Below, piece after piece: positions 27,612 through 48,605 of a DNA stretch of 64,000 nucleotides. The number at the start of each line of letters is the position of its first letter. Within the stretch, counting starts at the first letter, position 1. The notes below the pieces were generated by a model. It did no database searches, had not been told where the DNA came from, and was given only the letters and a program-made list of their open reading frames with translations. A program made the translations under genes and the position numbers. Origin of the DNA: an uncultured bacterium (GTDB lineage Bacteria; Cyanobacteriota; Vampirovibrionia; Gastranaerophilales; Gastranaerophilaceae); the NCBI GenBank assembly GCA_949292185.1, contig CASEYP010000002.1:46142-110141 (forward strand). Direction: 5' to 3'.

Positions 27612-27642
27612 GCAATTTTTCCGATCAAAAATACTTTATATA
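27612..27642 (+). promoter_or_regulatory. Regulon motif site: GCAATT-N13-ATACTTTATATA
   Basis: Exact match, ending 28 nt upstream of the CHAP gene ATG. Spacer contains ATTTTT-N6-AAAAAT. Confidence 0.6.
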
Positions 27643-27670
27643 AATATAGGGGAAAATAGAACGGGGAAAT

Positions 27671-28627
27671 ATGTATTTAGATTTTTATAATCCGATATCA
27701 TACAACACTGATGTTACAAGTCTCGTATATAACTACAACACAAGAAATATGGGATTATTTGGACAAAACTATTACTTCTTTGGCGGAAGTAATAATAATT
27801 CAATCTGGAATAATACAAATACCTGGTTTAGCGGATTTAACAGCATCTTTAACAATAACATGTTTGGTGGAAACAATATGTTTTTCGGGAATAATATGAC
27901 TTTCGGAAACAATTTCTTCGGCAATAACATGTTCTTCGGAAGTTCAAACCCATTTTCAAATATGAATACAGGTTCAGTTTGGATGTATCCAACCTATCAT
28001 TTTTATGGAACAGGCTCAAAAGGTAAAACTACCAGTTCATCTAGTTCTGCCAGTCCATCAAGTTCTATAAGTTCAACAAGTTCATCAACAAAAACATCCG
28101 AAGCTTCCCAAAAGCAAAAAGTAGAAGAAAAAGAAAAGACTCAAGCAAAAGTTCATAAACAAGAGGCTCACAAAACATCTATAGGAAAATCCTTAGCATA
28201 CGATGCAAGTAAATATCTTGGCTATAATGAAGCCGACGGCTCCTCTAAAAGATTTTCAGATAGCGGAGAATGGTGCGCAGACTTTGTGACTTTTGTTGTA
28301 AATGAAACATACGCTCAAAAAGGTCTAAAACCTCCTGCAGGGTTTGGCAACCACAGAGTTGAAAATCTAAAACAATGGGGCATAACAAACAACAAATATT
28401 TACCTATAGCAGGAAAATCAAATAAAGCGGACATAATCAAAAATCACGTCAAAATTGGTGATATAATGATACTTCGAGAAAACGGAGCATCTCATACCGG
28501 ATTTGTGTCTAAAATAAATGATGACGGATCATTTGAAACAATTGAAGGCAATAGAAATGATAAAGTTGTTAGACACACATACAGTCCAAACGACAATGAA
28601 CTTAGCGGATTTGTTCGAGTAGGGTGA
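27671..28627 (+). CDS. Leaderless CHAP-domain peptidoglycan hydrolase with N-terminal aromatic/Gly/Asn/Met-rich low-complexity region
   Basis: 318 aa. Residues ~27-100 are F/G/N/M-rich (NNMFGG NNMFFG NNMTFG NNFFG NNMFFG). Ser-rich linker at ~121-140. C-terminal CHAP domain (GEWCADFV Cys, ASHTGFV His, IEGN). Confidence 0.8.
   Translation: MYLDFYNPISYNTDVTSLVYNYNTRNMGLFGQNYYFFGGSNNNSIWNNTNTWFSGFNSIFNNNMFGGNNMFFGNNMTFGNNFFGNNMFFGSSNPFSNMNTGSVWMYPTYHFYGTGSKGKTTSSSSSASPSSSISSTSSSTKTSEASQKQKVEEKEKTQAKVHKQEAHKTSIGKSLAYDASKYLGYNEADGSSKRFSDSGEWCADFVTFVVNETYAQKGLKPPAGFGNHRVENLKQWGITNNKYLPIAGKSNKADIIKNHVKIGDIMILRENGASHTGFVSKINDDGSFETIEGNRNDKVVRHTYSPNDNELSGFVRVG
27851..27940 (+). repeat. In-frame degenerate ~18-nt tandem repeats encoding (NNMFFG)x5
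   Basis: aacaataacatgtttggtgga / aacaatatgtttttcggg / aataatatgactttcgga / aacaatttcttcggc / aataacatgttcttcgga. Confidence 0.8.
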
Positions 28628-29171
28628 TAATTTGAGATTTTAAATTATCAATAGTTGAATTATTATAAACAACCCAATCAGATTTTTCCTTTTTTATATC
28701 CTGACTCATCTGCTTTGACATCCGCAGCTTTGCATATTCTTTTGTGTAATGATTTCTTGCGATTAATCTTTCTTCTCTCAAAGCATCGTCACAATATACA
28801 AATAAGATTTTATCAAACAAATCTTCCATCTTGGCTTCAAAAAGTTGAGGAGCAGAAACAAATACAAATTTTTCTAAATCATACTTGGCAAAAAACTCAT
28901 TTATCCCGTGACGAACTTTGGGATATAACAAATTTTCTAAATCTGATTTTAATGTATCAGATGAAAAAACTAACTTACCCAACCTATCTCTGGAAATTTT
29001 ACCATTTTCAAAGACATCGTAAGCTCTAAAAAAATTTTTAACTGCATCACAATCCAACAAGGAATGACATAAAGCATCTGTATCCAAAACTTTATAGCCT
29101 AAATCTAACAAAAATTTTTCAACAGTTGATTTTCCGCTTGCAATATTTCCAACAATAGCAACTCTAATCAT
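28602..29171 (-). CDS. coaE: Dephospho-CoA kinase
   Basis: 189 aa with P-loop GNIASGKST. 26-nt convergent overlap with the CHAP gene. Confidence 0.88.
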   Translation of the reverse strand: MIRVAIVGNIASGKSTVEKFLLDLGYKVLDTDALCHSLLDCDAVKNFFRAYDVFENGKISRDRLGKLVFSSDTLKSDLENLLYPKVRHGINEFFAKYDLEKFVFVSAPQLFEAKMEDLFDKILFVYCDDALREERLIARNHYTKEYAKLRMSKQMSQDIKKEKSDWVVYNNSTIDNLKSQIITLLEQIR

Positions 29172-29901
29172 TTTTTGCAGCCAATCTATTTAAAAAATTC
29201 TTTAATTCTTTTATTTGACGAGGCTTAATAGGTTTAAATTCACCACGTTTCAACCCATCTAAATTCAATGTGGCATGCTGAATACGTTTTAACGTTACAA
29301 CTTCAAAGCCTAAATGCTCAAACATTCTACGAATTTGCCTATTCAAACCTTGATATAGCAAAACTTCCATAACAGTGCTATGATTATCGATTTCTAAAAC
29401 ATCAACTTGAGCATAAGCCATTTTGCCAGGTTCAAGTTCAATACCCTTATACATAGCATCTATATCATTTTGAGTAATTTTTCCGTTTATAGAAACTCTG
29501 TATAATTTAGGAACTTTAACAGAAGGATGAGTTAATTCATTAATTAAATCACCGTCATTAGTTAAAATTAATAACCCTGTAGAATCCTTATCCAAGCGAC
29601 CAACAGGTTTTAAGCTATGCATAGATTCAGGCAACAAATCATAAATAGTTTTGCGCCCTTTTTCATCATCTGCTGTAGTAATATAACCGGCAGGCTTGTA
29701 AAATCTGTAATACTCATGCTTAACAGGATGAATTAATTTGCCGTTAATAAAGACTTTATCTTTAGCTTGTACAGAAAAACCCAATTCAGTAACCTTTTTC
29801 CCGTTAACCTGAACTACACCTGATGAAATTAATTCATCGGCTTTTCTTCTTGAGCAAATTCCTGAAGATGCAATGTATTTATTTAAACGAGTGCCGGGCA
29901 T
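29164..29901 (-). CDS. rluB: RsuA/RluB-family pseudouridine synthase with S4 domain
   Basis: 245 aa. S4 N-terminus (RLNKYIASSGICSRRKADELI) and catalytic GRLDKDSTGLL. Confidence 0.85.
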   Translation of the reverse strand: MPGTRLNKYIASSGICSRRKADELISSGVVQVNGKKVTELGFSVQAKDKVFINGKLIHPVKHEYYRFYKPAGYITTADDEKGRKTIYDLLPESMHSLKPVGRLDKDSTGLLILTNDGDLINELTHPSVKVPKLYRVSINGKITQNDIDAMYKGIELEPGKMAYAQVDVLEIDNHSTVMEVLLYQGLNRQIRRMFEHLGFEVVTLKRIQHATLNLDGLKRGEFKPIKPRQIKELKNFLNRLAAKND

Positions 29902-30308
29902 TTTACTTCCTTTTCAAAAGCTTCTGCTAATATCTCCGGCATTCTGCGATACAATTTACCGGCACTATTAACAGCTACAACAACGACTTCAGCTTCAACA
30001 TAAGGTTTCAAATTTTGCTTAGATCTGATAGTCTGCTTAAATGTAACAGTACAACCATTAAAAGCAGAAATTTCACTTTCAATAATCATAGTATCATCCA
30101 ACTTTGCAGACATCTTGTACTTAATATTTAAATTTACGACAGGCATTGAAATATCATGATTTTCAACCAAATCAATCAAACTATAACCCATCATTTCGCA
30201 CAAACCAACACGACCCATTTCAAGCCATCTTAAATAAGATCCGTGCCATACAACACCATAAGCATCTGTGTCAGAATAAAATACTTTTTGTTCAAATATA
30301 TGTTTCAT
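29883..30308 (-). CDS. YbgC/4HBT-family acyl-CoA thioesterase
   Basis: 141 aa with YSDTDAYGVVWHGSYLRW hot-dog motif. Confidence 0.8.
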   Translation of the reverse strand: MKHIFEQKVFYSDTDAYGVVWHGSYLRWLEMGRVGLCEMMGYSLIDLVENHDISMPVVNLNIKYKMSAKLDDTMIIESEISAFNGCTVTFKQTIRSKQNLKPYVEAEVVVVAVNSAGKLYRRMPEILAEAFEKEVKCPALV

Positions 30309-30350
30309 AAACAGATTATAACATCAAAAGTTAAAAATTAATCAATTTTT

Positions 30351-30980
30351 ATGTATAATAAACTTATGAATAAAAAGATTCCTAAAAAAGTTATTAACCG
30401 TTTAACCCTATATCATTGCATTTTGCAGGATTTTATCAATAAAAATACGGAATATATTTCAAGTAAACAAATCGCAACACTTTTAAAAATTGACGATTCA
30501 CAAGTGAGAAAAGATATTAATTTACTGAACAATTCCGGCAAATCCAGAGTTGGATATTACGTAAAAGAATTAAAAAAATCAATAGAAACATCACTTGGTT
30601 TTGCAAAAACTAAAAATGCTCTTATTATTGGAGCCGGAAACCTTGGAATGGCACTTGCAAAATATGACAACTTTACAAGTTACGGTCTTAATATTACAAC
30701 TCTGTTTGATAATGATAAAACCAAAATCGGAAAAGAAATTAATAATAAAAAAATTCTTGATATAAAAACCCTTTCAACATTCACAAAAGAAAATAAAGTT
30801 GAAATCGCAATTTTAACAGTTCCAGGCAAATTTGCACAACAAACAGCAGATTTTATAATAAAATCAAACATTAAATATATATGGAATTTTACACCTACAG
30901 TATTAGATGTACCAGAAGATGTTCAAGTCTGGAATGAAAATCTTATGGGGAATTTTCTACAATTCACATATAATATTTAA
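30351..30980 (+). CDS. rex: Redox-sensing transcriptional repressor Rex
   Basis: 209 aa. Winged-helix N-terminus (IPKKVINRLTLYHCIL) and Rossmann GAGNLGMAL. Confidence 0.88.
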   Translation: MYNKLMNKKIPKKVINRLTLYHCILQDFINKNTEYISSKQIATLLKIDDSQVRKDINLLNNSGKSRVGYYVKELKKSIETSLGFAKTKNALIIGAGNLGMALAKYDNFTSYGLNITTLFDNDKTKIGKEINNKKILDIKTLSTFTKENKVEIAILTVPGKFAQQTADFIIKSNIKYIWNFTPTVLDVPEDVQVWNENLMGNFLQFTYNI

Positions 30981-30987
30981 ACTTGCC

Positions 30988-31791
30988 TTATTTTAAAACA
31001 TCCATAAATTGAAAACGATTTTCTGATTTGAAAGATTTTGACATATTTAATTCATAAATCATTTTTAAACCTTCCAAAGTTAAAATAGGATTAACATAAT
31101 CAAAAGGTCGTTTTAAATAATTAGCAATCAATCCGCAATATCCGCCGGTTGCAATAATTGTAGCTTTTTCGCCAAGTTCTTCTTCACATTGAGACACCAA
31201 CCCGTCAACCATACAAGCGGTACCTCTTATAACACCTGATAATATAGCTTCTGTAGTATTATGACCAACTGCTCTTTGCGAAATTGATACATCAATTTTA
31301 GGAAGTTTTGAAGTTGAATTTTTCAAACATTTCATCTGTGTGTTAATTCCAGGTGCAATAACGCCGCCTAAAAATTCATTTTTAGAATTTATAATATCAA
31401 AAGTTGTAGCCGTTCCAAAATCAATAACAATAACAGCGCCTTTATACTTATTAGAAACAGCAACAGCATTAGCTAATCTGTCTGCACCAACTTCACGAGG
31501 ATTGTCAGTTGCAATTTTAATACCTAAATTAACATCACAATCAACAAATACGGATTTTAAATTAAAAGCATTATCACAAGCTCTTTTAAATTTAATATTC
31601 AATTCCTCAACAACAGATCCGATAACACATCCGTCAATCTTATAATCTTTAAACAATGACTTTAAAATATTTTCATATTCTTCACCGGTCAAATCTCTAT
31701 CCGATGCCAAACGAAATTCATTAATATATTTATTATTATCAAATAAACCTAGGGTAATATTAGTATTTCCGATATCTGCTGTTAATAACAT
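30988..31791 (-). CDS. coaX: Type III pantothenate kinase
   Basis: 267 aa with LLTADIGNTNI, IDFGTATT and ATGG motifs. Confidence 0.9.
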   Translation of the reverse strand: MLLTADIGNTNITLGLFDNNKYINEFRLASDRDLTGEEYENILKSLFKDYKIDGCVIGSVVEELNIKFKRACDNAFNLKSVFVDCDVNLGIKIATDNPREVGADRLANAVAVSNKYKGAVIVIDFGTATTFDIINSKNEFLGGVIAPGINTQMKCLKNSTSKLPKIDVSISQRAVGHNTTEAILSGVIRGTACMVDGLVSQCEEELGEKATIIATGGYCGLIANYLKRPFDYVNPILTLEGLKMIYELNMSKSFKSENRFQFMDVLK

Positions 31792-31796
31792 AAAAA

Positions 31797-31823: not shown

Positions 31824-31853
31824 TCTATTACAAATATAGTTTTATTGTAAAGT

Positions 31854-32057
31854 CTAAATATTACCTAAATTATTCATCTGAGTAGCAGTAGTAGCTGCAG
31901 ATGCAGATGCAGGTGAAACAAGACCTTTTGATAACAATTCAGATAAATTAAACTTTTTCTTTTGTTGGTTTACTAAATAAGTTTTTGTACTATCTGCAAA
32001 ATCATTAACTTTATTAACAGCTGCTCCTGTAATTTTTGAAATTGATAATTCGGACAT
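31854..32057 (-). CDS. 67-aa hypothetical protein driven by a regulon motif
   Basis: GGAGGATGAGG RBS upstream. Motif site 35 nt upstream of the ATG. Ala/Ser/Thr-rich C-terminus. Confidence 0.55.
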   Translation of the reverse strand: MSELSISKITGAAVNKVNDFADSTKTYLVNQQKKKFNLSELLSKGLVSPASASAATTATQMNNLGNI

Positions 32058-32092
32058 AACCTCATCCTCCGTAGTTCATAATCGTTCTTATT

Positions 32093-32123
32093 TATATAAA
32101 GTATTTTTTAATGAGAGAATTGC
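32093..32123 (-). promoter_or_regulatory. Regulon motif site: GCAATT-N13-ATACTTTATATA
   Basis: Exact match on the minus strand (plus strand reads TATATAAAGTAT-N13-AATTGC), ending 35 nt upstream of the ATG at 32057. Confidence 0.6.
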
Positions 32124-32199
32124 ATAAAAACAAAATTATTGTTACATAAGTTTACAAAAAGGAAAAATAAATGAAATGTATCAAATTGATTGAATAATG

Positions 32200-32227
32200 T
32201 TGACAAAAAATTATGAGCGGATAGAAT
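32200..32227 (+). promoter_or_regulatory. Canonical sigma70-type promoter of tuf
   Basis: TTGACA (32200-32205), 16-nt spacer, TAGAAT (32222-32227), about 67 nt upstream of the tuf ATG. Contrasts with the regulon motif. Confidence 0.5.
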
Positions 32228-33637: not shown

Positions 33638-33814
33638 TTATGCTAATAAAGCTTCTAAAATCTTAGCATTAGTTTGAGCTCTGCGAATATTTAATAAATA
33701 TTTTTCAACATTTGCTCTAATTTCTTGAGCATCGTTATCCAAATATTTCACTTCGCTATCAAGCATTTTCAAATATTCATTTACTGTAATCATTTGATAA
33801 CTTTTGTTATTCAT
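33638..33814 (-). CDS. 58-aa micro-protein, paralogue family member (ITVxEY motif and NAKILEALLA tail)
   Basis: Own translation: MNNKSYQMITVNEYLKMLDSEVKYLDNDAQEIRANVEKYLLNIRRAQTNAKILEALLA. Below the track's length cut-off. Starts 39 nt downstream of the RHH gene, with GGGGAA before the ATG. Confidence 0.7.
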   Translation of the reverse strand: MNNKSYQMITVNEYLKMLDSEVKYLDNDAQEIRANVEKYLLNIRRAQTNAKILEALLA

Positions 33815-33853
33815 TTCCCCAATTCCTTTTTCTAAATTTCCCCTTTTAAAATT

Positions 33854-34042
33854 TTAACCTAACAGAGCTTCTAATATTTCTGCATTTGAAACAGCCTTTT
33901 TACCATTTCTAACTTGTGATCTGTACATATAAGTTCTTAATGCTTCTCTGATCAATTCTGAACGTGTACGATTTTCTGAATCTGCAACTGAATCGATTTC
34001 ATTTAAAAACTTTTCAGGCATTGAAATTAATACTCTTGCCAT
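33854..34042 (-). CDS. Ribbon-helix-helix (CopG/Arc-like) DNA-binding protein with family-specific C-terminal tail
   Basis: 62 aa: MARVLISMPEKFLNEIDSVADSENRTRSELIREALRTYM (strand-helix-helix pattern) followed by the tail ...KKAVSNAEILEALLG. Confidence 0.8.
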   Translation of the reverse strand: MARVLISMPEKFLNEIDSVADSENRTRSELIREALRTYMYRSQVRNGKKAVSNAEILEALLG

Positions 34043-34085
34043 ATTTTTCTCCTTTAATTTTTCCTATTTGTAATCCCCTTACTTA

Positions 34086-34116
34086 TATATAAAGTATTTT
34101 TGTTTGCAAAAATTGC
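34086..34116 (-). promoter_or_regulatory. Regulon motif site: GCAATT-N13-ATACTTTATATA
   Basis: Exact match on the minus strand, ending 43 nt upstream of the RHH ATG (34042). Confidence 0.6.
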
Positions 34117-34209
34117 GCATTTTATAAAGAAAAAGTATATAATCTTAATATAATGTTACAATTCAAAAAGCAAGAGCCACAAGGAATATAAACCCCTAAA
34201 CACACAAAA

Positions 34210-34239
34210 AGGATGTTGAGTATAATACTTCAACATCCT
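34210..34239 (-). terminator. Terminator of the 99-aa gene
   Basis: Stem AGGATGTTGA(G) / (T)TCAACATCCT with an 8-nt loop. On the minus strand it is followed by TTTTTGTGTG. Confidence 0.75.
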
Positions 34240-34264
34240 AAACTGTTTATATTGTGATCTTGAA

Positions 34265-34564
34265 TTAACCTAACATAGATTCAAGAAGATAAGCATTAAT
34301 TCTAGCTTTACGAGATTTGCTTAAAGACAATTCTATTGATTTTTCGATTTCTCTATCTTCAGCAGTTGAATATTTAACTTTGTCTAAAGCTGATGCATAT
34401 TCTTTTACTGTTATAAATTGAGAAGCTTGGGATAATGCACATTGAGCTTTTAAAGATTTAGCATAATCAGATGCTGTAATCATTGTATGTCTTTGAGCAT
34501 TCTCTTTTTTCATTGACTCAACATAGTCATTAACTGTCATTAAATCTGAATAATTATTGTTCAT
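34265..34564 (-). CDS. 99-aa paralogue with a triplicated N-terminal module and the family tail (INAYLLESMLG)
   Basis: Three copies of h-[IM]-T-[VA]-x-[DE]-Y-[VA]-x-[SA]-[ML]-x at residues 8-19, 28-39 and 50-61. Has its own motif promoter and terminator. Confidence 0.7.
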   Translation of the reverse strand: MNNNYSDLMTVNDYVESMKKENAQRHTMITASDYAKSLKAQCALSQASQFITVKEYASALDKVKYSTAEDREIEKSIELSLSKSRKARINAYLLESMLG

Positions 34565-34602
34565 ATATTTCCCCTGTTCTCTTAATATTTTACCCTTACA
34601 TA

Positions 34603-34633
34603 TATATAAAGTATTTTTCTATTTAAAAATTGC
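34603..34633 (-). promoter_or_regulatory. Regulon motif site: GCAATT-N13-ATACTTTATATA
   Basis: Exact match on the minus strand, ending 38 nt upstream of the ATG at 34564. Confidence 0.6.
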
Positions 34634-34695
34634 CTATTTTTTATATAAATTTTACATATTTTAACATTTAAATACAAGTTCTTAACAAATCGAAA

Positions 34696-34718
34696 GGGGC
34701 AGGCGTTAAACCTGTCCC
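34696..34718 (-). terminator. Weak terminator hairpin after 56-aa gene copy 1
   Basis: GGGGCAGG / CCTGTCCC arms (one mismatch when read on the minus strand), followed by CTTTCGATT as at copy 2. Confidence 0.45.
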
Positions 34719-34749
34719 TTAAACTTGTATCTTAATAGAATCCTATTTA

Positions 34750-34920
34750 TTAAGCTAATAAAGCTTCAACGATTTTGGCATTTGTTTTTGCTCTTTGAAC
34801 ACTTAATAAATATTTTTCAACACTTGCTTCAATTTCTTTTTCTTCGATTGATAAACATTTTACATTATCTAAGCTATCAACATAATCTTTAACTGTTATC
34901 ATTTCATAATCATTTCTCAT
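34750..34920 (-). CDS. 56-aa micro-protein, copy 1
   Basis: Own translation: MRNDYEMITVKDYVDSLDNVKCLSIEEKEIEASVEKYLLSVQRAKTNAKIVEALLA. AAGGGGAAAAG RBS. Protein identical to copy 2, with only synonymous DNA differences. Confidence 0.8.
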   Translation of the reverse strand: MRNDYEMITVKDYVDSLDNVKCLSIEEKEIEASVEKYLLSVQRAKTNAKIVEALLA

Positions 34921-34965
34921 AATCTTTTCCCCTTATATTTTTTTTATTCTCTTATCCCTTACATA

Positions 34966-34996
34966 TATATAAAGTATTTTTCTATTTAAAAATTGC
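34966..34996 (-). promoter_or_regulatory. Regulon motif site: GCAATT-N13-ATACTTTATATA
   Basis: Exact match on the minus strand, ending 45 nt upstream of the ATG at 34920. Confidence 0.6.
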
Positions 34997-35068
34997 CTAT
35001 TTTGTAGTTATTTTGTATATAATTTTTACATATTTTAATACCTATAAAATCACTAATCATAATCGAAA

Positions 35069-35099
35069 GGGCAGAATTAAATTTAATTTAATTCTGCCC
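35069..35099 (-). terminator. Terminator after 56-aa gene copy 2
   Basis: 13-bp perfect stem GGGCAGAATTAAA / TTTAATTCTGCCC with a 5-nt loop, followed on the minus strand by TTTCGATT. Confidence 0.7.
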
Positions 35100-35131
35100 T
35101 TATAAACTTTTTATAGATTATATTTTATTTA

Positions 35132-35302
35132 TTAAGCTAATAAAGCTTCAACGATTTTAGCATTTGTTTTTGCTCTTTGTACACTTAATAAATATTTTTC
35201 AACGCTTGCTTCAATCTCTTTTTCTTCAATTGATAAACATTTTACATTATCTAAGCTATCAACATAATCTTTAACTGTTATCATTTCATAATCATTTCTC
35301 AT
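35132..35302 (-). CDS. 56-aa micro-protein, copy 2
   Basis: Same 56-aa protein as copy 1. Five nucleotide differences, all at third codon positions and all synonymous. Confidence 0.8.
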   Translation of the reverse strand: MRNDYEMITVKDYVDSLDNVKCLSIEEKEIEASVEKYLLSVQRAKTNAKIVEALLA

Positions 35303-35348: not shown

Positions 35349-35379
35349 TATATAAAGTATTTTTCTATTTAAAAATTGA
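35349..35379 (-). promoter_or_regulatory. Regulon motif site, variant TCAATT-N13-ATACTTTATATA
   Basis: One mismatch (T for G) in the distal hexamer. Ends 46 nt upstream of the ATG at 35302. Confidence 0.55.
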
Positions 35380-36710: not shown

Positions 36711-39700
36711 TTATTTAACTAATACTAAATTTTTACCACATTCATCTGTTTTATTTTCATAAGCCTTACAAATCGTTCTGGAATTAGGCTTAACATCATA
36801 TCTGCCGGTAAATGTTAATGGTGTATCTTTCGGAACAGAATAAAGGATTAATGTCGTATCATTTAGAGGAATTGAACCATCACCTGATCCTCGCTTGATG
36901 AAATATTTACCATCAATCTCATTGACATAATATTTATCATTCTCATCCTTTGCATTCACAAATTCAGTACCAGGTTTCAAGCCAGGGATACCAACTCCGC
37001 CTTCACCATCAATATAAACCGTTTTCTCGCCACCATTGCCGGTGCGTTGAACATCAAAGTTCAATTTTATAGAATCTAAAACAATATTATCTTGTTTATA
37101 TTCACGTCTGTGATCAGTATGAAGAGCTGAAGTATTAAATAATGAAATTGCCATTCTACCGTCAGGGCTCTGTCTAAAGATAGCAGGAACTTTAACATGT
37201 TCTTTTGAATCTTGTAACGGTAAAGTATAAACTGCACCATTATTCAAAGCATTACATTTTGGATTTCTACGAACTGCCATAACTTCATCAAAATATTTCT
37301 TATATTTTGCAATAAATGGTTTATATTTAGTTGCGTCAGTGAAATCCAACCATTCATCATGAACTCTTTGACGACCTTGTAAGAACATATTCTTAGTTTT
37401 TGTATCATAACCAGTTGCACCTACATCGTCGCCATCAAATAAAGTTGGCATACCTGGTAATGCTACAACATATTTCATCATACCTAAGACTTTTGATAAT
37501 GCAGGCTTCATAACAGCTTCAAACACGTCATTTTCATAATCTGCATCAGCTCCAGGTGGTAATTGGAAACCATATTGACTTCTAGCTTGTTTTAACACCA
37601 TTGATATTGTTACATCAATAGGTTTTACACCAAACGCATCCGGATCAAATCGTTTGCCCATAAATTTACCTTGAGCTAAATCAGAAATAGCTTTACTTAT
37701 TGGTATGAAAGCTTTATTAAACTGTTCATCAGAACCCAATTCATTTCTATATTTATCTCTATAATTATTTAAGACATCAATAAATGCAGGTCTTAAAGCA
37801 TCTGCCATAGCAATAGCTTTTGGTGATACTGCAGAGAAATCATAATTATCAACTTCTGCATCTGAAATTGGTTCTAAGAATTTATCTTTAATAATTTGGT
37901 AAGCCTTACGTCTATTTTCACGACCTTCTACATAGTTCAAATCACAGTAGAATAATGACATATCCAAAGCTGCACAATGCAATGCTCTAGGTTTATCATG
38001 GTTACCTATAAATGTATAAGCATACATTACAGAATCCAAGCCTCCGGATCTGATAAACGGATTATTTCCACCTACCATTTTTTCAAATATTACTTTTTGA
38101 AGATAATTACTATCTGTAAAATATGTACCATCTTCAAAATCTTTTGCAAACATATTTGAAATTAATCTAAACCAATGAGTATAATTTGCAGTTGAAGACA
38201 TGCCTGTTTCTCTTTGGAATTTAGAAACAATGTCATTGAACTTGTTAGGGAATTTTCTAGAAGCACTTCCATAGCCTCTTTCGTGCAAATTGATTTCATC
38301 AGTAATTTCTGCAACCGTATAAGCATTTGGATTAATCTTAATAACGCCCTGAGTAAATTTATTCCAGAAATTAATAACTTGTTGCCAAGTATATTCAAAG
38401 TTTGTATTTGTGTTACGTAAAGCTTCAACATCAGCAATATCTTTTGCAGCGTCAATTCTCCAATCTAAACCTGATTGTGCTTTATCAATAATTAAATCTG
38501 CTAATTGGAAACTTGCGAGATTTGTATCTTTTAAGGTTCTGACCATAGATTCAACAATTTCACTATCTATAGATGAATCCAAATTCTTCATTCCTTTACG
38601 TAAACGATGTAACAACATCTGAGCTTCATCTTTAGGTGATGCAGGATTTAGAATACCTATACCTTGTAATGATAATTGCTTTAATTCTTTATAATCGTAT
38701 GATAATTCACCACTTGAAGAATTTATTGCAACAGTAACATTCGGATCTAATGATTTTATAACTGCATATTTAGCAATCATCGGCAACAATATTGGTAACG
38801 CGTATTTACCAAATTCAGTAACTTCATCACCATCAAATAATTTCTTATCATCCGGTAATACAGAATCAACTTGATCCAATACTGTAGTTGCAAAATTAGA
38901 CATTTCCTGAGTATAGATTTTATCCATCTGCTCATATGTATCTTTATACTCTGCAGGAAGATGTTTATTACCTTCTTTATAGATTTGATATCTTGGAACA
39001 GCAATATCAGAAGGAACTACCGCTCTTTTTGAAATCAATGGAGATGCTAATACTGAAACAATGTTGTCCCCTAATTCAAAAGAATCCAATGGAGTATTCA
39101 TCAAACCTTCTAAGATTTGAGATTTCTTGTCTTCATTTGATAATACTCTTTTATTATTATAAAAACCTTCTAATACATTTTCCACTTCAGTTTTTGAAAC
39201 TTCTGCCTTCAATGATTTAGGGAAAATCTTATTATTAGACATATCTACGATTTGACTATAAACTTTAGACGGATTATTTACATCCACGTTTCTTAAAGTT
39301 TGTGCTACATACAATCTTAAAATATCATCAGTCTTAGCTGTCCAATATTGTCCTGAAGATATAGCATAATCTTGAACTTGCATATTACCGCGAATAATTT
39401 TCTTCATTTCGCGTTTTCTCTCATCTACAGGCAAGTTAATTAAAGACTTTGTATCAGCATTTGAAAATACAAAATTCAATTTTGCAATATCAGGGTTAGC
39501 ATCCCAAGTTTCAAAACCACTTTCGTATTTACCATCGACTACAAAGTTTCTGAATTTAGATAAGAATCTTGAACCCATTGGACCATTCATTGTAATTGGT
39601 CTATCCGGATTCATATCATTATATTTATTTAAGTTTTTAATATTATCATTATAAGTTTCAGGATTTATTTCAAATGCGTATGGGAACACTGAATCATTAT

Positions 39701-40871
39701 GAGAATGTAAATCATATACATTTGGAGTACTCATCTTTGAATAAGTTTTTATCAAAGATTTATTATCATTTCTTTCTTCTTCAGTAACTAAACGTGTATC
39801 AAAGAATTGAATGTATGTTGGTTTTTTAGGATCATAAGCTCTATTTTTCTTAATTGAAATATGCCCAATTCTATTTTGAGAATATGAATAAGGTGAGTTT
39901 ACTATTTTATGTGAAATATAATCTTTATTCTTTACAAAAACGCCCAAAGATAAAGGATTATTCTTTATCCCTGATGCTCTAAACCAATTTATATATGGAG
40001 AATCATCACCCCATTTTAAAATATGTTTAAAGTGAACACCTTCCAAACCTTCATTGACAAAAGCACCATCTGAAACAAAATTCAAACCATGCGCAAACAT
40101 TTTTCTCTGTAAAGAAGCATAATTATTTATATTACCAAGAGAACTTGCCATCTGCATACAGTTTTTATTCCAATAAGCATGGGCTGTAAAATCATCATCT
40201 GTAAATATTGGTAATGAAATTATTCTGCTATAACCATCATAATCGCCTTTATCTACAGCATATTCTAAACCTGCCAAAGTGCCACCAAACTTATTAGCTA
40301 CAGTTTTAATACCCTTTTCGCCTCTTTCAGCAAGTTTTTCATCTCTAACAATCATGTTTTGGTCATTATATACATACCCTACCTTTTGGGAATCTATAAT
40401 AACCAATTTCATGGCTCCACCTTTAGATAAGTTAGATTTTGTAGGTACAACTATATTAAATATATTTCTATTTTCATTAGCGCTTGAACGTTCATCTATA
40501 ATTTCACCGGCATCAACTCTGGTCTTTGTATAACCGGTCTTTTTATCAACTAAAAGGAAATGATATGCAAAAGCTTGATTATCGTCAAAACCATACTTTC
40601 TTGCCAAATCAACTTTATTTACACCAGGTTTTAACTCAATATTGTCTTTACCGTCACGAGAATAGGCTTTACCTGTAGAAAAATAATTGCCATATCTATC
40701 TTGATCTAATTTATAGATTTCAAGATAACATCTATCTTTATTCTCGTCATACGGATAAGAAAATTCAAATTCTCTAAAACCTTGATCTGATTTATCAAAC
40801 TTATACCCTTGAAATGCAACTGAATTATTATTTTCAGCCTTATTCTTCTTTAAATCAAAATTTACTTTCAC
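36711..40871 (-). CDS. Giant GH13 (alpha-amylase family)-like protein, no signal peptide
   Basis: 1386 aa. GH13 landmarks by eye: GGTLAGLEY...SLPIFT...HAYW; region I NFVSDGAFVNEG (aa 264-275); region II LDWRIDAAKD (802-811); region III TVAEITDE (852-859); region IV FIGNHDKPR (954-962). Confidence 0.7.
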   Translation of the reverse strand: MKVNFDLKKNKAENNNSVAFQGYKFDKSDQGFREFEFSYPYDENKDRCYLEIYKLDQDRYGNYFSTGKAYSRDGKDNIELKPGVNKVDLARKYGFDDNQAFAYHFLLVDKKTGYTKTRVDAGEIIDERSSANENRNIFNIVVPTKSNLSKGGAMKLVIIDSQKVGYVYNDQNMIVRDEKLAERGEKGIKTVANKFGGTLAGLEYAVDKGDYDGYSRIISLPIFTDDDFTAHAYWNKNCMQMASSLGNINNYASLQRKMFAHGLNFVSDGAFVNEGLEGVHFKHILKWGDDSPYINWFRASGIKNNPLSLGVFVKNKDYISHKIVNSPYSYSQNRIGHISIKKNRAYDPKKPTYIQFFDTRLVTEEERNDNKSLIKTYSKMSTPNVYDLHSHNDSVFPYAFEINPETYNDNIKNLNKYNDMNPDRPITMNGPMGSRFLSKFRNFVVDGKYESGFETWDANPDIAKLNFVFSNADTKSLINLPVDERKREMKKIIRGNMQVQDYAISSGQYWTAKTDDILRLYVAQTLRNVDVNNPSKVYSQIVDMSNNKIFPKSLKAEVSKTEVENVLEGFYNNKRVLSNEDKKSQILEGLMNTPLDSFELGDNIVSVLASPLISKRAVVPSDIAVPRYQIYKEGNKHLPAEYKDTYEQMDKIYTQEMSNFATTVLDQVDSVLPDDKKLFDGDEVTEFGKYALPILLPMIAKYAVIKSLDPNVTVAINSSSGELSYDYKELKQLSLQGIGILNPASPKDEAQMLLHRLRKGMKNLDSSIDSEIVESMVRTLKDTNLASFQLADLIIDKAQSGLDWRIDAAKDIADVEALRNTNTNFEYTWQQVINFWNKFTQGVIKINPNAYTVAEITDEINLHERGYGSASRKFPNKFNDIVSKFQRETGMSSTANYTHWFRLISNMFAKDFEDGTYFTDSNYLQKVIFEKMVGGNNPFIRSGGLDSVMYAYTFIGNHDKPRALHCAALDMSLFYCDLNYVEGRENRRKAYQIIKDKFLEPISDAEVDNYDFSAVSPKAIAMADALRPAFIDVLNNYRDKYRNELGSDEQFNKAFIPISKAISDLAQGKFMGKRFDPDAFGVKPIDVTISMVLKQARSQYGFQLPPGADADYENDVFEAVMKPALSKVLGMMKYVVALPGMPTLFDGDDVGATGYDTKTKNMFLQGRQRVHDEWLDFTDATKYKPFIAKYKKYFDEVMAVRRNPKCNALNNGAVYTLPLQDSKEHVKVPAIFRQSPDGRMAISLFNTSALHTDHRREYKQDNIVLDSIKLNFDVQRTGNGGEKTVYIDGEGGVGIPGLKPGTEFVNAKDENDKYYVNEIDGKYFIKRGSGDGSIPLNDTTLILYSVPKDTPLTFTGRYDVKPNSRTICKAYENKTDECGKNLVLVK

Positions 40872-43991: not shown

Positions 43992-43998
43992 CTTTTAC

Positions 43999-44652
43999 TT
44001 ACTCCTTTTCTATTTCAAATGTATAATTTTGACCTTTTATAGTATTTTCATTACCTGCATCAATATCATCATTCTTAGAATCAATATCCTTAAACTTCAA
44101 AAAGAAAGGTTGATTAATAGAAATATTAATATCTTCACCTTTCTCTACATAAGAAAAAGGTGATGCTTCATAAACAGAAACGGCTGAAGATTTAACTCTG
44201 TTACCTTCTTCATTTTTAACCGCACCTGATACTGCTGCAACTCCCATCGATAAACCTTTTACAAAGAAATTACCAACTCCTAAAGCGGCATTTTTTGCAA
44301 CTTGACCTTTATCAATAGGTTCTGTATATGATGCTGTAATGTTCGAAGTTATCTGGTATGTTTTTCCGTCCAAATCGATATAACTTACAGGCTTAAAAGA
44401 AAAATCCGCATCGCGTTTCAATCTTTTCGGGCTAACTACATCAAACAAATCGCCTTTCATTATCACTCCTGCTTTATAAACTTCAGATTCTGAAATTTCT
44501 AAAGGTTCCAGAAGTTTTATAGAAATTGACTTTGGAGGATTCTCTGTTGAAAACTTATTCAACGAATAAACCTCAATAGTCTGGGCATATGCTTGTGTAT
44601 ACATACAAGATATTAATATTATAAAACCTGTAAATATATTTTTTTGCCACAT
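43999..44652 (-). CDS. Secreted protein, unknown function
   Basis: 217 aa with a signal peptide ending TQAYA. Its own TTGAAT-N17-TATTAT promoter-like element lies in the 65-nt gap after uvrA. Confidence 0.6.
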   Translation of the reverse strand: MWQKNIFTGFIILISCMYTQAYAQTIEVYSLNKFSTENPPKSISIKLLEPLEISESEVYKAGVIMKGDLFDVVSPKRLKRDADFSFKPVSYIDLDGKTYQITSNITASYTEPIDKGQVAKNAALGVGNFFVKGLSMGVAAVSGAVKNEEGNRVKSSAVSVYEASPFSYVEKGEDINISINQPFFLKFKDIDSKNDDIDAGNENTIKGQNYTFEIEKE

Positions 44653-44717
44653 AAAAACACCTTATCTATGTTTACATAATAGCAAATTCTTCACTAAAAT
44701 TCAAATACTCTATAATA

Positions 44718-47552
44718 TCAAGCTTTTTTAAGATATTTAGATAAATATTTACCGGTATAAGAATCTTTACATTTCATAATATCTTCAGGTGTTCCTTGAG
44801 CAATCACTCTACCGCCATCAACACCGCCTTCAGGCCCCAAATCTATAATATGATCTGCAATTTTAATCAAATCAAGATTATGTTCAATCATTAAAATAGT
44901 ATTACCCTGATCAGCCAAAGCTTGTAATATTTTTGCAAGTTTATCCAAATCAGCCCAATGTAAACCAACAGACGGCTCATCAAGTAAATATAAAGTTTTG
45001 CCTGTAGAACGCTTATTTAATTCAGACGCCAATTTTATACGCTGAGCTTCACCACCTGATAATGTTGTAGCACTTTGACCTAATTTCATATAATCAAGTC
45101 CAACGTCATACAAAGTTTGAAGTTTATTTTTAATAGATGGAATACTATCAAAAAAGTCTAAAGCTTCTTTTACACTCATATCAAGTACATCTGCAATAGT
45201 TTTGCCTTTATATTTAACTTCCAAAGTTTCTCTATTGTATCGCATACCCTTGCAAACATCACATTTTACATAGACATCAGATAAAAAGTTCATTTCAATT
45301 TTAACAAGACCGTCGCCCTTGCAAGCTTCACATCTTCCGCCTTTAACATTAAAACTAAATCTTCCGGGTTTATAACCTCTTACCTTTGATTCATTAGTTC
45401 TGGCAAATAATTCTCTAATAGGTGTAAATACATCCGTATAAGTTGCAGGATTAGAACGAGGAGTTCTACCTATTGGCGACTGATCGATATCAATAATTTT
45501 ATCTATATATTCAAAACCAAGAATTTCATCTACACCTTGAGGTTTTGGCTTATTCTTTCTCAATTTATGAGCGGCATACTCAAATAAAATATCTTGCATC
45601 AAAGTTGATTTACCAGAGCCTGAAACCCCTGTTAATATAACAATTTTACCCAACGGAATATCAACATTAATATGCTTCAAATTATTCAAATAAGCATTTT
45701 TTATTTGTAAATAATGTCCATTACCTTCTCGAATTTTATCGGGAACAGGAATATACTTTTCTCCGCTCAAATACTTACCAGTAATAGATGCTTTAGCCGC
45801 AATAATATCATCCACAGAACCCTGTGCAATAATTTTACCACCGGCAACACCTGCTCTTGGACCGATATCAACAATATAATCTGCACTTCTTATGGTATCT
45901 TCATCGTGTTCAACAACAATCAATGTATTACCCAAATTTCTCAACTTAAACAGAGTCTTAATAAGCATATCATTATCGCGTTGATGTAACCCTATAGAAG
46001 GCTCATCTAGGACATATAAAACACCGCTTAAGCCACTACCAATTTGAGAAGCCAAACGAATTCTTTGAGATTCACCACCTGACAAAGTTCCTGCCATACG
46101 AGCCAAGTCTAAATAATGTAAACCTACATCACATAAGAATTTCAACCTTGCTCGAATTTCATCCAAAATTTGTTTTGCAATTTTCAACTGATATTCTGTC
46201 AAGTCCAAATACAATTCTGTTATAAATTGTAATTCATCATCAACAGACATCTTTGTAAATTCATAAATATTTTTATCTTTAATTTTAACTGCTAATGGAA
46301 AAGGTTTTAACCTTGCGCCATGGCAAACAGGACATGGCTTTGCGACCATAAATTTCTCAATTTCTTCACGCCAATAATCACCATTTGAATCATTATATCT
46401 TTTTTCCAAAAACGGAATAACTCCGACAAATGGCTGCAAATTAGTTTGATAACGACTTGTTCCAAATTGTTTAACTCTGATTTTTATAGGATCCTCAGAA
46501 CCATACAAAATAATATTTTGCTGCTCCTTTGTCAATTTTTCAAAAGGAGTATCCATATCTATATTGTAAGCACTACAAACTGAACTTAATAAATCATGAT
46601 AATAAGTTGTAGCACTACGAGAAGCCCAAGCATATATTGCTCCCTCATTTAAAGATAAAGATTTATCCGGAACAATCAAATCAGGATCAACAACAAAATC
46701 TGCCCCCAAACCTGAACATCTTTCACAAGCTCCGTAAGGCGCATTAAATGAAAAGATTCTTGGTGTCAATTCTTCAAAACTAATATTACAATCAGGACAA
46801 GCCAACTTTTCACTAAAAACGATTTCTTTATCGCCAACAACATCAACAATAACAATACCGTCAGCATTTTTTAATGAAATCTGAACACTATCAGCTAACC
46901 TTGATCTTGCAGATTCTTTAACAACAATTCTATCAACAACAATACTTATATCGTGTTTTTTCGTTTTTGCTAACTCAATTTCATCTTCATCAAGACTGTA
47001 AGTTTCTCCATCAACCTTAACTCTGACAAATCCTTCTTGTCTTAATTCTTCAAATAAAGATGAATATTCACCTTTCTTACCTCTTACAACAGGAGCTAAT
47101 ATCTGAATTTTAACACCTTCACCAAGTGCTAAAATTTTATTTATAATTTCATCCAAAGTTTGAGGTTTAATTTTTCTTCCGCAAACAGGACAATATGGAG
47201 TCCCAACTCTTGCATATAAAAGTCTTAGATAATCATAAATTTCCGTAATAGTACCAACTGTAGATCTTGGATTATTACTTTTTGACTTCTGATCAATAGA
47301 AATTGCAGGAGATAAACCATCAATATATTCAACATTAGGCTTGTCAAGCTGACCTAAAAACTGTCTTGCATAAGTTGACAAACTTTCAATATATCGCCTT
47401 TGACCTTCTGCAAAAATAGTATCAAAAGCTAATGAACTTTTGCCTGATCCTGAAACTCCGGTAAAAACAATAAGTTCATTTTTGGGGATTTCTAATGATA
47501 CATTTTTTAAATTATGTTCTTTTGCTCCAACAATTTTTATCTTCTCTGCCAT
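44718..47552 (-). CDS. uvrA: Excinuclease ABC subunit A
   Basis: 944 aa. Two ABC modules (GVSGSGKSS, GVSGSGKST, two LSGGE signatures) and Zn-finger Cys clusters. Confidence 0.97.
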   Translation of the reverse strand: MAEKIKIVGAKEHNLKNVSLEIPKNELIVFTGVSGSGKSSLAFDTIFAEGQRRYIESLSTYARQFLGQLDKPNVEYIDGLSPAISIDQKSKSNNPRSTVGTITEIYDYLRLLYARVGTPYCPVCGRKIKPQTLDEIINKILALGEGVKIQILAPVVRGKKGEYSSLFEELRQEGFVRVKVDGETYSLDEDEIELAKTKKHDISIVVDRIVVKESARSRLADSVQISLKNADGIVIVDVVGDKEIVFSEKLACPDCNISFEELTPRIFSFNAPYGACERCSGLGADFVVDPDLIVPDKSLSLNEGAIYAWASRSATTYYHDLLSSVCSAYNIDMDTPFEKLTKEQQNIILYGSEDPIKIRVKQFGTSRYQTNLQPFVGVIPFLEKRYNDSNGDYWREEIEKFMVAKPCPVCHGARLKPFPLAVKIKDKNIYEFTKMSVDDELQFITELYLDLTEYQLKIAKQILDEIRARLKFLCDVGLHYLDLARMAGTLSGGESQRIRLASQIGSGLSGVLYVLDEPSIGLHQRDNDMLIKTLFKLRNLGNTLIVVEHDEDTIRSADYIVDIGPRAGVAGGKIIAQGSVDDIIAAKASITGKYLSGEKYIPVPDKIREGNGHYLQIKNAYLNNLKHINVDIPLGKIVILTGVSGSGKSTLMQDILFEYAAHKLRKNKPKPQGVDEILGFEYIDKIIDIDQSPIGRTPRSNPATYTDVFTPIRELFARTNESKVRGYKPGRFSFNVKGGRCEACKGDGLVKIEMNFLSDVYVKCDVCKGMRYNRETLEVKYKGKTIADVLDMSVKEALDFFDSIPSIKNKLQTLYDVGLDYMKLGQSATTLSGGEAQRIKLASELNKRSTGKTLYLLDEPSVGLHWADLDKLAKILQALADQGNTILMIEHNLDLIKIADHIIDLGPEGGVDGGRVIAQGTPEDIMKCKDSYTGKYLSKYLKKA

Positions 47553-47695
47553 ACTGATATTATGATACGAGTATAAATAAATTTCAAATCATATAATGCT
47601 AACTTTACAAAAACATGAAAAAATGTTATAATATATATATCCTAGCCACTTAAAAAGCCATTAAATATTACCTTAATAAGAAAGGAAATATTTAA

Positions 47696-48424
47696 ATGGG
47701 CAAAAAATCTAAATATCCGGAATATTCATCCGGTAGTGTTGAAATTAACGGGAATACAGTTGCTACTGCAACAAAAAAAGATGACAATACCATAAGTAGT
47801 TCATACAACATGTCTGATACCGAAAAGAATATTTATGATGGCATCCAAAATAATTTAGCATCATCACTCGGAAGTTTATTTGATATCTCAGACTCAACAC
47901 AAAAGCAATGGCAAAATCAATTGGAAGCCTATAAACAAGAAGGCATCGACCAAATAAACAGCATCTATACACCAATGGAAACTGCATTAAAAAATGATAT
48001 CGCATCCAGATTTGGGAACTTTGACAACTCAATATTTATGGATAATCTAAGCAACATAACAGATAACAAAGCCAAAGCAGTTGCAGATTTGAGTGATTCA
48101 CTTGTAATGAAACAAGATGAATTATATACAAATGAACTTGCAAACAGAATAAATTACGTAACTTTATTAAGCAATCTAAACACTACAATGAACAACAATA
48201 TTCTAAATTATATGCAATTAGCAGACTCCAATGCAAATTCCGGCAACAACTATAACGCAAATGCATATAATGCACAAAATTCAGGCTCATCATTTCTAAG
48301 CGGTATAGCAGACATAGGCTCAACAGCATTATCCTTTATAAATCCATTAGCAGGAGCTGCATCAAAGCTAGGAACTTCAGCCCTAAAAACATCCTACACA
48401 AGTAACGGAAGCTTATACGCATAA
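47696..48424 (+). CDS. Asn/Ser-rich helical protein, unknown function, no signal peptide
   Basis: 242 aa. GAAAGGAAA RBS and a TGTTATAAT extended -10-like element upstream. Confidence 0.6.
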   Translation: MGKKSKYPEYSSGSVEINGNTVATATKKDDNTISSSYNMSDTEKNIYDGIQNNLASSLGSLFDISDSTQKQWQNQLEAYKQEGIDQINSIYTPMETALKNDIASRFGNFDNSIFMDNLSNITDNKAKAVADLSDSLVMKQDELYTNELANRINYVTLLSNLNTTMNNNILNYMQLADSNANSGNNYNANAYNAQNSGSSFLSGIADIGSTALSFINPLAGAASKLGTSALKTSYTSNGSLYA

Positions 48425-48564
48425 GCACATACGCAAATAAACCAAATATAAAAAAATAAGCAGGGAGGTTAGAAAAATTTAACAACTCTGCTTATTTTTA
48501 TCCAAATACAAACTAAAGACCAAGAAGAAATATTAAGATTTGTTACGAAAAGAACAGTATATAA

Positions 48565-48595
48565 GCAATTATTTACAAGATATATACTTTATATA
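48565..48595 (+). promoter_or_regulatory. Regulon motif site: GCAATT-N13-ATACTTTATATA
   Basis: Exact match, ending 29 nt upstream of the ATG at 48625. Confidence 0.6.
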
Positions 48596-48605
48596 TATAA
48601 AGTAT
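48584..48605. promoter_or_regulatory. Perfect 22-bp palindrome built from the proximal motif half
   Basis: ATACTTTATATATATAAAGTAT equals its own reverse complement. Confidence 0.7.

Follow-up and report, generated by a model that had tools for sequence, protein, structure and literature searches.

A bipartite element that defines a lineage-wide promoter class in the Gastranaerophilales

A 64,000-nucleotide (nt) stretch of DNA from an uncultured Gastranaerophilaceae bacterium (assembly GCA_949292185.1, contig CASEYP010000002.1, positions 46,142 to 110,141; hereafter the window) carries seven copies of the bipartite element GCAATT-N13-ATACTTTATATA. The window has a G+C content of ~31% and encodes Omp85/ShlB, OmpH, Rex, FeFe hydrogenase, EF-Tu, CoaX, UvrA and Obg; the genes behind the element include a CHAP peptidoglycan hydrolase gene, an RHH gene and several small open reading frames (ORFs) of no known family. 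A preliminary description of the window, made from the letters of the DNA, proposed that the element defines a dispersed regulon of genes of unknown function, working either as a promoter for an alternative sigma factor or as a promoter plus an operator for a dedicated regulator. The follow-up analysis supports a dispersed regulon under a distinct promoter class. The element itself is almost certainly a promoter, and the class that it represents is lineage-wide and previously undescribed, a search of the literature on promoters or sigma factors of Melainabacteria having returned nothing relevant.

The window was searched with the element allowing up to three mismatches, and 100 dinucleotide-preserving shuffles served as background. 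Exactly the seven sites listed earlier were recovered, six exact and one with TCAATT, all with the strict spacing of 13 nt, and no others were found at this threshold. Shuffled windows gave an expectation of 0.56 sites with a maximum of 3, and seven were reached in none of the 100, which confirms the assertion that the recurrence is beyond chance. All seven copies are intergenic, lie on the same strand as the next gene and end 28-46 nt before its start codon (Table 1), as had been described. The sites at 34603, 34966 and 35349 are local duplicates with identical spacers, leaving the five independent loci that were originally counted. The sequence ATTTTT-N6-AAAAAT, earlier noted in several spacers, occurs in five of the seven and is missing at 32093 and 48565. 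Annotation of the window proteins agrees with the statement that no housekeeping gene of the window has the element, and the promoter named for tuf is indeed the best sigma-70-like match of its region.

Table 1. Coordinates of the element copies, the units behind them and the upstream tandem sites in the window
Feature	Coordinates	Strand	Remarks
Element copy 1	27612..27642	+	Exact; ends 28 nt before the start codon of CHAP318
Element copy 2	32093..32123	-	Exact; 35 nt upstream of orf67
Element copy 3	34086..34116	-	Exact; 43 nt upstream of the RHH gene
Element copy 4	34603..34633	-	Exact; 38 nt upstream of orf99
Element copy 5	34966..34996	-	Exact; spacer same as copy 4; 45 nt upstream of orf56a
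Element copy 6	35349..35379	-	TCAATT variant (commonest tolerated change); 46 nt upstream of orf56b
Element copy 7	48565..48595	+	Exact; 29 nt upstream of orf414
CHAP318	27671..28627	+	318 amino acids (aa); F/G/N/M-rich low-complexity N-terminus, C-terminal CHAP peptidoglycan hydrolase domain
orf67	31854..32057	-	No family; monocistronic; terminator hairpin 31826-31794
RHH62 + orf58 unit	33638..34042	-	Two genes; terminator 33562-33528
RHH62	33854-34042	-	Pfam RHH_1
orf58	33638-33814	-	Diverged paralogue of RHH62
orf99	34265..34564	-	Three repeats of the RHH-like small-protein module; terminator hairpin 34239-34210
orf56a	34750-34920	-	Terminator hairpin ~34719-34695
orf56b	35132-35302	-	Terminator hairpin 35101-35067
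orf414	48625..49869	+	F/G/M-rich low-complexity N-terminus, Gly/Ser linker, no known family; terminator hairpin 49896-49927
tuf promoter	32200..32227	+	TTGACA-N16-TAGAAT; ordinary sigma-70 type, 11/12 consensus match; for contrast only
HLR1-type tandem, perfect	32141..32158	+	GTTACATAAGTTTACAAA; only perfect one in 64 kb; at -35..-18 of copy 2, opposite-strand orientation
HLR1-type tandem, one mismatch	34651..34668	+	TTTACATATTTTAACATT; at -35..-18 of copy 4; one of two one-mismatch sites in the window
HLR1-like site, 2 mismatches	34145-34162		One helical turn further out from copy 3
HLR1-like site, weak, 3 mismatches	48529-48546		At -36..-19 of copy 7

Six of the seven element-driven units in the window close with terminator-like hairpins, and orf67 is monocistronic because the hairpin behind it insulates it from coaX. 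RHH62, orf58, orf56a, orf56b and orf99 (33638-35302, minus strand) belong to one paralogous family of RHH-like mini-proteins, recognised by a common C-terminal tail, (T)NAKI(V/L)EALLA or NAEILEALLG, and the units of this family have their own promoter copies and terminators. Orthologues sit under the element in other species as well (L019, L025, L089 and L110, where L-numbers denote collected loci).

To follow the element beyond the window, one genome per prokaryotic species was scanned for the exact 18 fixed bases, which were found in at least 120 stretches of species-representative genomes. Nearly all of the matches listed come from metagenome-assembled genomes (MAGs) under the names Candidatus Gastranaerophilales, Melainabacteria or 'Cyanobacteria bacterium'. 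The element thus belongs to the order Gastranaerophilales, the gut Melainabacteria, as a whole. Several MAGs with odd labels show the full signature and the same downstream families (L013, L015 and L022, 'uncultured Acinetobacter'; L052, 'Brachyspira'; L020, 'Eubacteriales'; L056, 'Clostridium'). They are probably Gastranaerophilales bins deposited under a wrong name, and since they carry the full signature, the element could serve as a lineage marker. About 10 of the 18 viral matches (IMG/VR) also show the complete signature. They are small tailed-phage contigs (L122, L123, L125, L128, L130, L135, L136 and L137, also L127 and L133), one of 18.5 kb, which encode head-tail adaptor, major head and tail proteins and have one full composite promoter copy each. 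The phage copy has a very clean CTTTACA-N3-CTTAACA tandem upstream and precedes a gene of ~95 aa (MLFT...) that is divergent from the structural (head, portal) genes. The phages probably infect Gastranaerophilales and borrow the promoter of the host, and the presence of the element in phages that rely on the host transcription machinery speaks for a promoter of the host. Eight of the 18 viral matches and a few genomic ones (e.g. L057) miss the extended signature and were discarded as chance matches.

The anatomy of the element was read from an alignment of 119 genomic copies on the fixed bases, with the G of GCAATT as position 1. The 31-nt core of the preliminary description is real, but conservation continues both upstream and downstream of it, and the full element is GCAATTTT-N11-ATACTTTA-TATA-tAtRtAAG. 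It consists of a -35-like box, GCAATTTT, at positions 1-8, 11 variable nucleotides, a -10-like box, ATACTTTA, at 20-27, and then TATA and the consensus tAtRtAAG at positions 32-39. Positions 7-9 are T-rich, with T8 in 102 of the 119 copies; A18 is present in 112, position 19 is A or T, A33 is found in 96 and a purine stands at position 35 in all 119. On the upstream side position -1 is G or A, and a signal of 10-bp period appears near -33 and -23; it belongs to a tandem repeat, considered below, that an A-rich stretch of 17 nt separates from GCAATTTT.

The class is sharply bounded. The 0.93 Mb of lineage DNA yields 129 exact copies, 8 that differ at one position and 7 that differ at two, and at three to four mismatches the count falls to the level of shuffled DNA. 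Position 1 tolerates T in place of G, position 21 A in place of T, and position 31 C or G in place of A; GCAAAT, GCAACT and xxACTTTATATA variants are seen at further loci, which leaves GCAA...ACTTTATATA as the hardest core. Only 4 of the 137 copies of ATACTTTATATA miss the left box at N13, and two of these four have a left box with one mismatch. The two halves therefore form one obligately coupled recognition unit, and the GCAATTTT-N11-ATACTTTA spacing is invariant across all 138 copies.

Density and orientation were examined in the same DNA, a check that had been proposed at the outset. Of 138 copies, 127 (92%) are intergenic, though 78% of the sequence lies in ORFs of at least 100 aa, and at 109 a co-oriented ribosome-binding site and start codon follow within 135 nt, at a median gap of 32 nt (interquartile range 28-45 nt). 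The earliest ribosome-binding sites start at element position 35-37. Twenty copies have no ORF behind them; a conserved hairpin follows instead, and then a terminator hairpin with a U-run 90-190 nt downstream, the arrangement of small RNA (sRNA) genes. It could be argued that the element is not a promoter but part of the transcript (a leader or an RNA motif), a site of recombination or integration, or a dispersed repeat resembling a miniature inverted-repeat transposable element, as its conservation is higher than promoters usually show, AUUUUU-N6-AAAAAU might fold into a weak hairpin and the window holds local duplicates. Copies differ freely in their flanks and in the 11-13 nt of the spacer, however, which is not expected of a repeat family, there is no Rfam match, and the hairpin is missing from many copies. 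Together with the strict orientation and distance to start codons, and with the ORF-less units from element to terminator, which make little sense without a transcription start at the element, this leaves a non-promoter function with hardly any credibility.

The regulon consists of peptidoglycan hydrolases, RHH-like small proteins, F/G/N/M-rich low-complexity proteins and sRNAs. At least 15 downstream protein families recur between species. Orthologues of RHH62, the 56-aa family, orf67 and orf414 are among them and carry the element in other species, so the conservation upstream of orthologues that had been called for is found. The three tests that could have refuted the promoter class, on placement and orientation, on conservation before orthologues and on presence across the lineage, each left it standing. 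Among 102 downstream proteins ~80% have no Pfam family, and the rest are mainly glucosaminidase, SLT, CHAP, LysM and RHH proteins with a few HD and EF-hand proteins. No housekeeping protein is encoded close to the element (within ~100 nt) in this set; the sole housekeeping matches, PEPCK, TsaD and Obg, are more than 120 nt away on the downstream side, with an sRNA in between. Flagellar Pfam families are likewise missing from the 102 proteins, and a flagellin gene in L011 is without the element. A search of the PDB with regulon proteins found no solved-structure relatives, the matches of orf414 being Gly/Ser linkers. An F/G/N/M-rich N-terminal low-complexity region (e.g. FGGNNMFFGNNMTFGNNFFGNNMFFG) is common to many regulon proteins, including CHAP318 and orf414 (window 27671-28240 and 48625-48950; further examples in L018, L036, L039, L047, L066, L105, L118 and L120). 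It is at times fused to an enzyme domain (CHAP), has no evident signal peptide, and may be a shared module for targeting, assembly or phase separation.

At least three families of terminator-bounded sRNAs stand under the element. Type 1 (L027, L052, L058, L101, L107, L048, L042/L068/L116, L084/L086/L106, L043, L083 and L076) has a G-poor 'CACACUAACCUUCUACAC' stretch followed by a GAGGAAU...AUUCC hairpin, and type 2 (L007, L041 and L074) contains the reverse complement of the type-1 5' region. A short 'CUCUCUUCUU' type is found at L090 and L146/L163/L166/L187. Rfam searches of the window and of 19 sRNA-bearing loci returned tRNAs only. Complementarity between the sRNAs and the leaders of regulon mRNAs (AAGGUUAG, GUGUAGUA) is suggestive but not significant, with a few short words enriched on very small counts and the longest matches at background level. 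As to the size of the regulon, 17 sites with up to two mismatches were counted in 390 kb of loci collected independently of the element, which corresponds to ~50-100 promoters per 2-Mb genome, an estimate possibly inflated by synteny with the sigma factor gene through which those loci were gathered. Outside the regulon, a 1386-aa ORF of the window (36711-40871, minus strand), which stands between ychF and the gene for S-adenosylhomocysteine hydrolase, matches no Pfam family at E <= 0.001.

The RHH protein had been put forward as the obvious candidate for a dedicated regulator, which would imply control of its own gene. In such a mechanism it would bind the ATTTTT-N6-AAAAAT spacer or the fixed boxes next to an ordinary promoter and control the whole set. 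RHH proteins are typically autoregulatory repressors, and the element precedes the RHH gene not only in the window, where five of the seven spacers are palindromic, but also in at least two other species (L019 and L089). The fixed boxes are nevertheless asymmetric and mutually unrelated, unlike RHH operators, which are short inverted or tandem repeats. The palindrome is missing at two of the five independent window loci and is weakly conserved across the 119 copies, in which only T8 and A18 of the spacer are strong and the T-run and A-run read as continuations of the asymmetric boxes on either side. RHH62 is one of five paralogous regulon products with the same tail, which look like cargo or modulators, and an RHH operator leaves both the sigma-28-like layout and the upstream box described below without explanation. 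The proposal is not supported and is very improbable, although RHH62 could still have a modulatory role at a subset of promoters.

The periodic signal upstream of the element is the tandem (G/T)TTACA(T/A)(T/A)-N2-(G/T)TTACA(T/A)(T/A), at about -35..-18. With up to two mismatches it is present within 100 nt upstream of 76 of 132 elements (58%) compared to 2.7% of random windows, 17 of the matches being perfect. Its start peaks at -37..-34 when it lies on the opposite strand and at -33..-31 when it lies on the same strand, and perfect matches peak at -35. This sequence is known from cyanobacteria as HLR1, the site of the OmpR-type regulator RpaB, which is made of two 8-nt direct repeats of (G/T)TTACA(T/A)(T/A) placed 2 nt apart. 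The 0.93 Mb of Gastranaerophilales DNA contains 29 perfect HLR1 tandems (e.g. L011, L021, L079, L094, L100 and L110) against 0 in shuffles. The window was not selected for this feature, and its copies 2, 3, 4 and 7 have HLR1-like sites upstream (Table 1); copy 1 is without one because that position falls inside the preceding ORF. The remaining one-mismatch tandem of the window, at 52761-52778, lies ~85 nt upstream of an unannotatable 270-aa gene (52863-53675) with no element or sigma-28-type box after it, and could mark an ordinary core promoter under an RpaB-type regulator. A further explanation of the tandem, as the -35 of a divergent housekeeping promoter, was rejected, there being no -10 at the right distance.

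RpaB acts as an activator where HLR1 spans -66..-45 relative to the transcription start (-70..-53 in the case of cas10) and as a repressor where it lies elsewhere. On the assumption of a start at element position 31-35, the tandem at -35..-18 from GCAATT would lie at -66..-47 to -70..-51. RpaB orthologues have been reported for all Melainabacteria orders examined, NblS orthologues root in Melainabacteria, and the orthologues of rpaA, rpaB and nblS kept in this group are of unknown function in the absence of photosynthesis (Di Rienzi et al.; Soo et al.). The identity of the motif and the published gene content suggest that an RpaB-type regulator may bind the tandem. Of the promoter-plus-regulator option raised earlier, then, one part stands, in that an additional regulator is indicated, but it is placed at the HLR1-like tandem 17 nt upstream and not, as an RHH protein, on the spacer.

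The same tandem leads to a second kind of promoter. Many HLR1-like sites without the element are followed instead by cTAAAG(T/A)TT-N11-(G/A/T)CCG(A/T)(A/C)A, which is of the sigma-28 type, the published consensus being TAAAGTTT-N11-GCCGATAA. The gap from tandem to TAAA is 17 nt or one helical turn more, and that from tandem to GCAA has its mode at 17 nt or is one turn less, giving the parallel layouts HLR1-N17-TAAAGTTT-N11-GCCGATAA and HLR1-N17-GCAATTTT-N11-ATACTTTA. HLR1 tandems at a fixed distance before two promoter classes suggest a conserved RpaB-like regulon in a non-photosynthetic lineage. Canonical sigma-28-type promoters (cTAAAGtTT-N11-GCCGATAt) coexist with the element in the same genomes, and the element is thus a second specificity and not a drifted FliA site. 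At L051 (~7100-7330) and L093 (~3920-4140) the element is followed by an HLR1-like tandem in its leader, then by a sigma-28-type promoter and then by a gene (MGIEF..., ~160 aa), an order that suggests hierarchical or dual control by the two classes. In these genomes the sigma-28-type promoters, too, stand before genes for small proteins of unknown function, as well as for an SLT transglycosylase and a GAF-HD-GYP protein, and with such overlapping outputs the two regulons look like related parts of one programme.

From these data a composite promoter can be proposed, in which the element would be the core and which would define a lineage-wide Gastranaerophilales regulon. An alternative sigma factor would read GCAATTTT and ATACTTTA, which are laid out as in sigma-28 or group-3 promoters with a new specificity; of the two mechanisms offered in the preliminary description, the alternative-sigma promoter is the one that fits best, on account of this 8-N11-8 layout. 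The layout explains the strict 13-nt 'spacer', the T-run after GCAATT and the misfit of sigma-70-type hexamer pairs. By analogy with sigma-28 promoters, transcription would start 6-8 nt after ATACTTTA, at the conserved purines 33-35 (A33 or R35), which agrees with the ribosome-binding sites from 35-37 and would put the tandem at activating distance. There an OmpR-family response regulator, most parsimoniously the RpaB orthologue, would bind. The output would be compact, terminator-bounded units for peptidoglycan hydrolases, RHH-like proteins, F/G/N/M-rich proteins and sRNAs. Taken as a whole, with a sigma-28-like layout read by an alternative sigma factor and an RpaB-type regulator assisting at the HLR1-like tandem, this mechanism is favoured with moderate confidence.

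Several observations weigh against it. No sigma factor or OmpR-type regulator is encoded in the 64-kb window, no sigma candidate could be linked to the element, and neither a FliA-family gene nor an OmpR-type gene was found in 1.3 Mb of lineage loci, the presence of RpaB resting on the published genome analyses. The lineage DNA examined contains the primary RpoD (L094), and the only non-primary sigma in it is a conserved, diverged RpoD-like protein (L107 2091-2990, plus strand), which is not FliA-like. This RpoD/RpoS-like sigma of ~275-300 aa falls below every NCBIfam cut-off, has an altered region 2.4 (WWIKQAMFKAISEQ) and region 4.2 (VTKECIRQMEKRA), and recurs, at 52-81% identity, in at least 119 contigs from gut and rumen metagenomes (L139-L218). 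Its gene is without an element of its own: none stands at a consistent position in 62 orthologous upstream regions, and autoregulation is not supported. The HLR1-like box occurs in both orientations and is absent or weak at ~40% of copies. The assignment of the -10 is inferential; (A/T)ATACT at 19-24 and TACTTT at 21-26 also fit a TAnnnT rule. Two-mismatch variants that alter A22/C23 (ATTGTTTATATA and ATCGTTTATATA) still look functional, which makes it hard to tell which bases matter. Lastly, 18-25 near-invariant positions exceed what a sigma factor usually needs, and an additional factor or a constraint at the RNA level may be involved.

The main rival is a mechanism in which the primary or an RpoD-like group-2 sigma uses (A/T)ATACT at 19-24 (TATACT compared to TATAAT) as its -10 and a dedicated activator at GCAATT replaces the -35 contact. 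GCAATT would then stand 12 nt upstream, centred near -28, in the geometry of T4 middle promoters or of activator-dependent cyanobacterial promoters without a -35. The hexamer agrees with the A(-11)/T(-7) rule and equals the SigJ -10 hexamer aAtacT, a start near 31 puts the HLR1 tandem at -66..-47, inside the published activating window, and the lineage does have the conserved RpoD-like sigma, with element-driven units often less than 1 kb from its gene. On the other hand, the box spacing and the HLR1 distance align base-for-base with those of the sigma-28-type promoters in the same genomes, which is simpler if GCAATTTT is the -35, and the strong conservation runs through TTTATATA, well past the -10 hexamer. 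No activator candidate was found, and the missing autoregulatory element of the RpoD-like sigma also counts here. A -35-less promoter of this kind is unlikely.

Gastranaerophilales are common gut and rumen bacteria, and we know of no cultured representative and of no transcriptomic or genetic data for them. With a promoter as sharply defined as this one, the regulon (~50-100 units per genome) can be read straight from any MAG, and dozens of lineage-specific protein families and sRNAs are marked as co-regulated; the element is also a ready-made strong promoter for future genetic tools. The HLR1-like tandems provide concrete candidate targets for RpaB/NblS, whose retention in non-photosynthetic Melainabacteria has been puzzling since 2013. 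To our knowledge, the one role described for NblS-RpaB is that of light/redox master switch in photosynthetic cyanobacteria. A tentative and, on balance, rather doubtful extension is that NblS-RpaB, together with a dedicated sigma-28-like sigma, ancestrally controls a cell-surface or developmental programme of ~50-100 promoters in the non-photosynthetic sister lineage. If this is true, the programme would be built from new protein types (F/G/N/M-rich proteins, RHH-like mini-proteins and wall hydrolases) and its own sRNAs, and HLR1 recognition would be older than photosynthesis.

The element was also compared with other promoter types, several of which were rejected. For the housekeeping sigma-70 promoter (TTGACA-N16-18-TATAAT), no hexamer pair in the element fits the spacing of 16-18 nt. 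Sporulation sigma factors (SigE, SigK and SigG) have a similar -10 (CATAC/CATAnnnTA), but the upstream box of the element is 3-6 nt too close, and sigma-54 and extracytoplasmic-function sigma factors fail for want of GG-N10-GC and of AAC/CGT, respectively. An archaeal-type TATA box matches TTTATATA, but ribosome-binding sites 4-6 nt after the element exclude a start ~25 nt downstream. A promoter of a phage-type single-subunit polymerase does not agree with a bipartite element that has a free spacer. T4 middle promoters combine a MotA box at -30 with a sigma-70 -10. If (A/T)ATACT is taken as the -10, the element resembles them in the short distance, ~12 nt, between its upstream box and a TAnnnT-type hexamer, a likeness that bears only on the activator mechanism; their sequences are unrelated, there is no evidence for a sigma-appropriation factor, and the element is chromosomal and lineage-wide.

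Cyanobacterial group-3 sigma factors belong to the sister lineage and have a comparable regulon, of ~100 promoters of cell-surface or developmental genes. The J-box of Nostoc SigJ is GGGaAtacT with a weak AT-rich -35. Its hexamer aAtacT equals (A/T)ATACT at 19-24, of which 20-24 were fixed by the search pattern and only position 19 (A in 76, T in 42 of 119) is independent. In place of the diagnostic GGG the element has AAA (with A at positions 16, 17 and 18 in 70, 67 and 112 of 119 copies), and in contrast to the weak -35 of the J-box, GCAATT is near-invariant and coupled to the right-hand box. The type-3 promoters of Synechocystis SigF, with TAGGC(-32) and GGTAA(-12), have a similar geometry and an upstream box nearer than -35, but these boxes are not in the element. 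As for RpaB-dependent cyanobacterial promoters, the tandem fits the HLR1 consensus, often perfectly, and would lie at activating distance (-66..-45, or -70..-53 as at cas10) with a start at element positions 29-35. The differences are that the host does not photosynthesise, that its targets have nothing to do with light acclimation, that the core is a special promoter class instead of a housekeeping one, and that the tandem stands in both orientations.

Sigma-28 promoters (FliA/SigD/WhiG) offer the nearest layout. The element shares their 8-N11-8 bipartite structure, including the 11-nt spacing (TAAA-N15-GCCGATAA), and the -35 boxes agree at 5 of 8 bases (xxAAxTTT). It departs from them in sequence, with GC in GCAATTTT where the core TA of TAAAGTTT stands and with ATACTTTA matching GCCGATAA (core CGA) at only 2 of 8 bases; no recognisable flagellar gene follows the element, and its conservation runs ~12 nt further downstream. 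Autolysins belong to the SigD regulon of B. subtilis. The sigma-28-type promoters of the same genomes likewise drive small lineage-specific proteins and peptidoglycan hydrolases, and they lie at the same 17-nt distance, or one turn off, from the HLR1-like tandem. This parallel architecture suggests a duplicated or retargeted group-3 sigma system.

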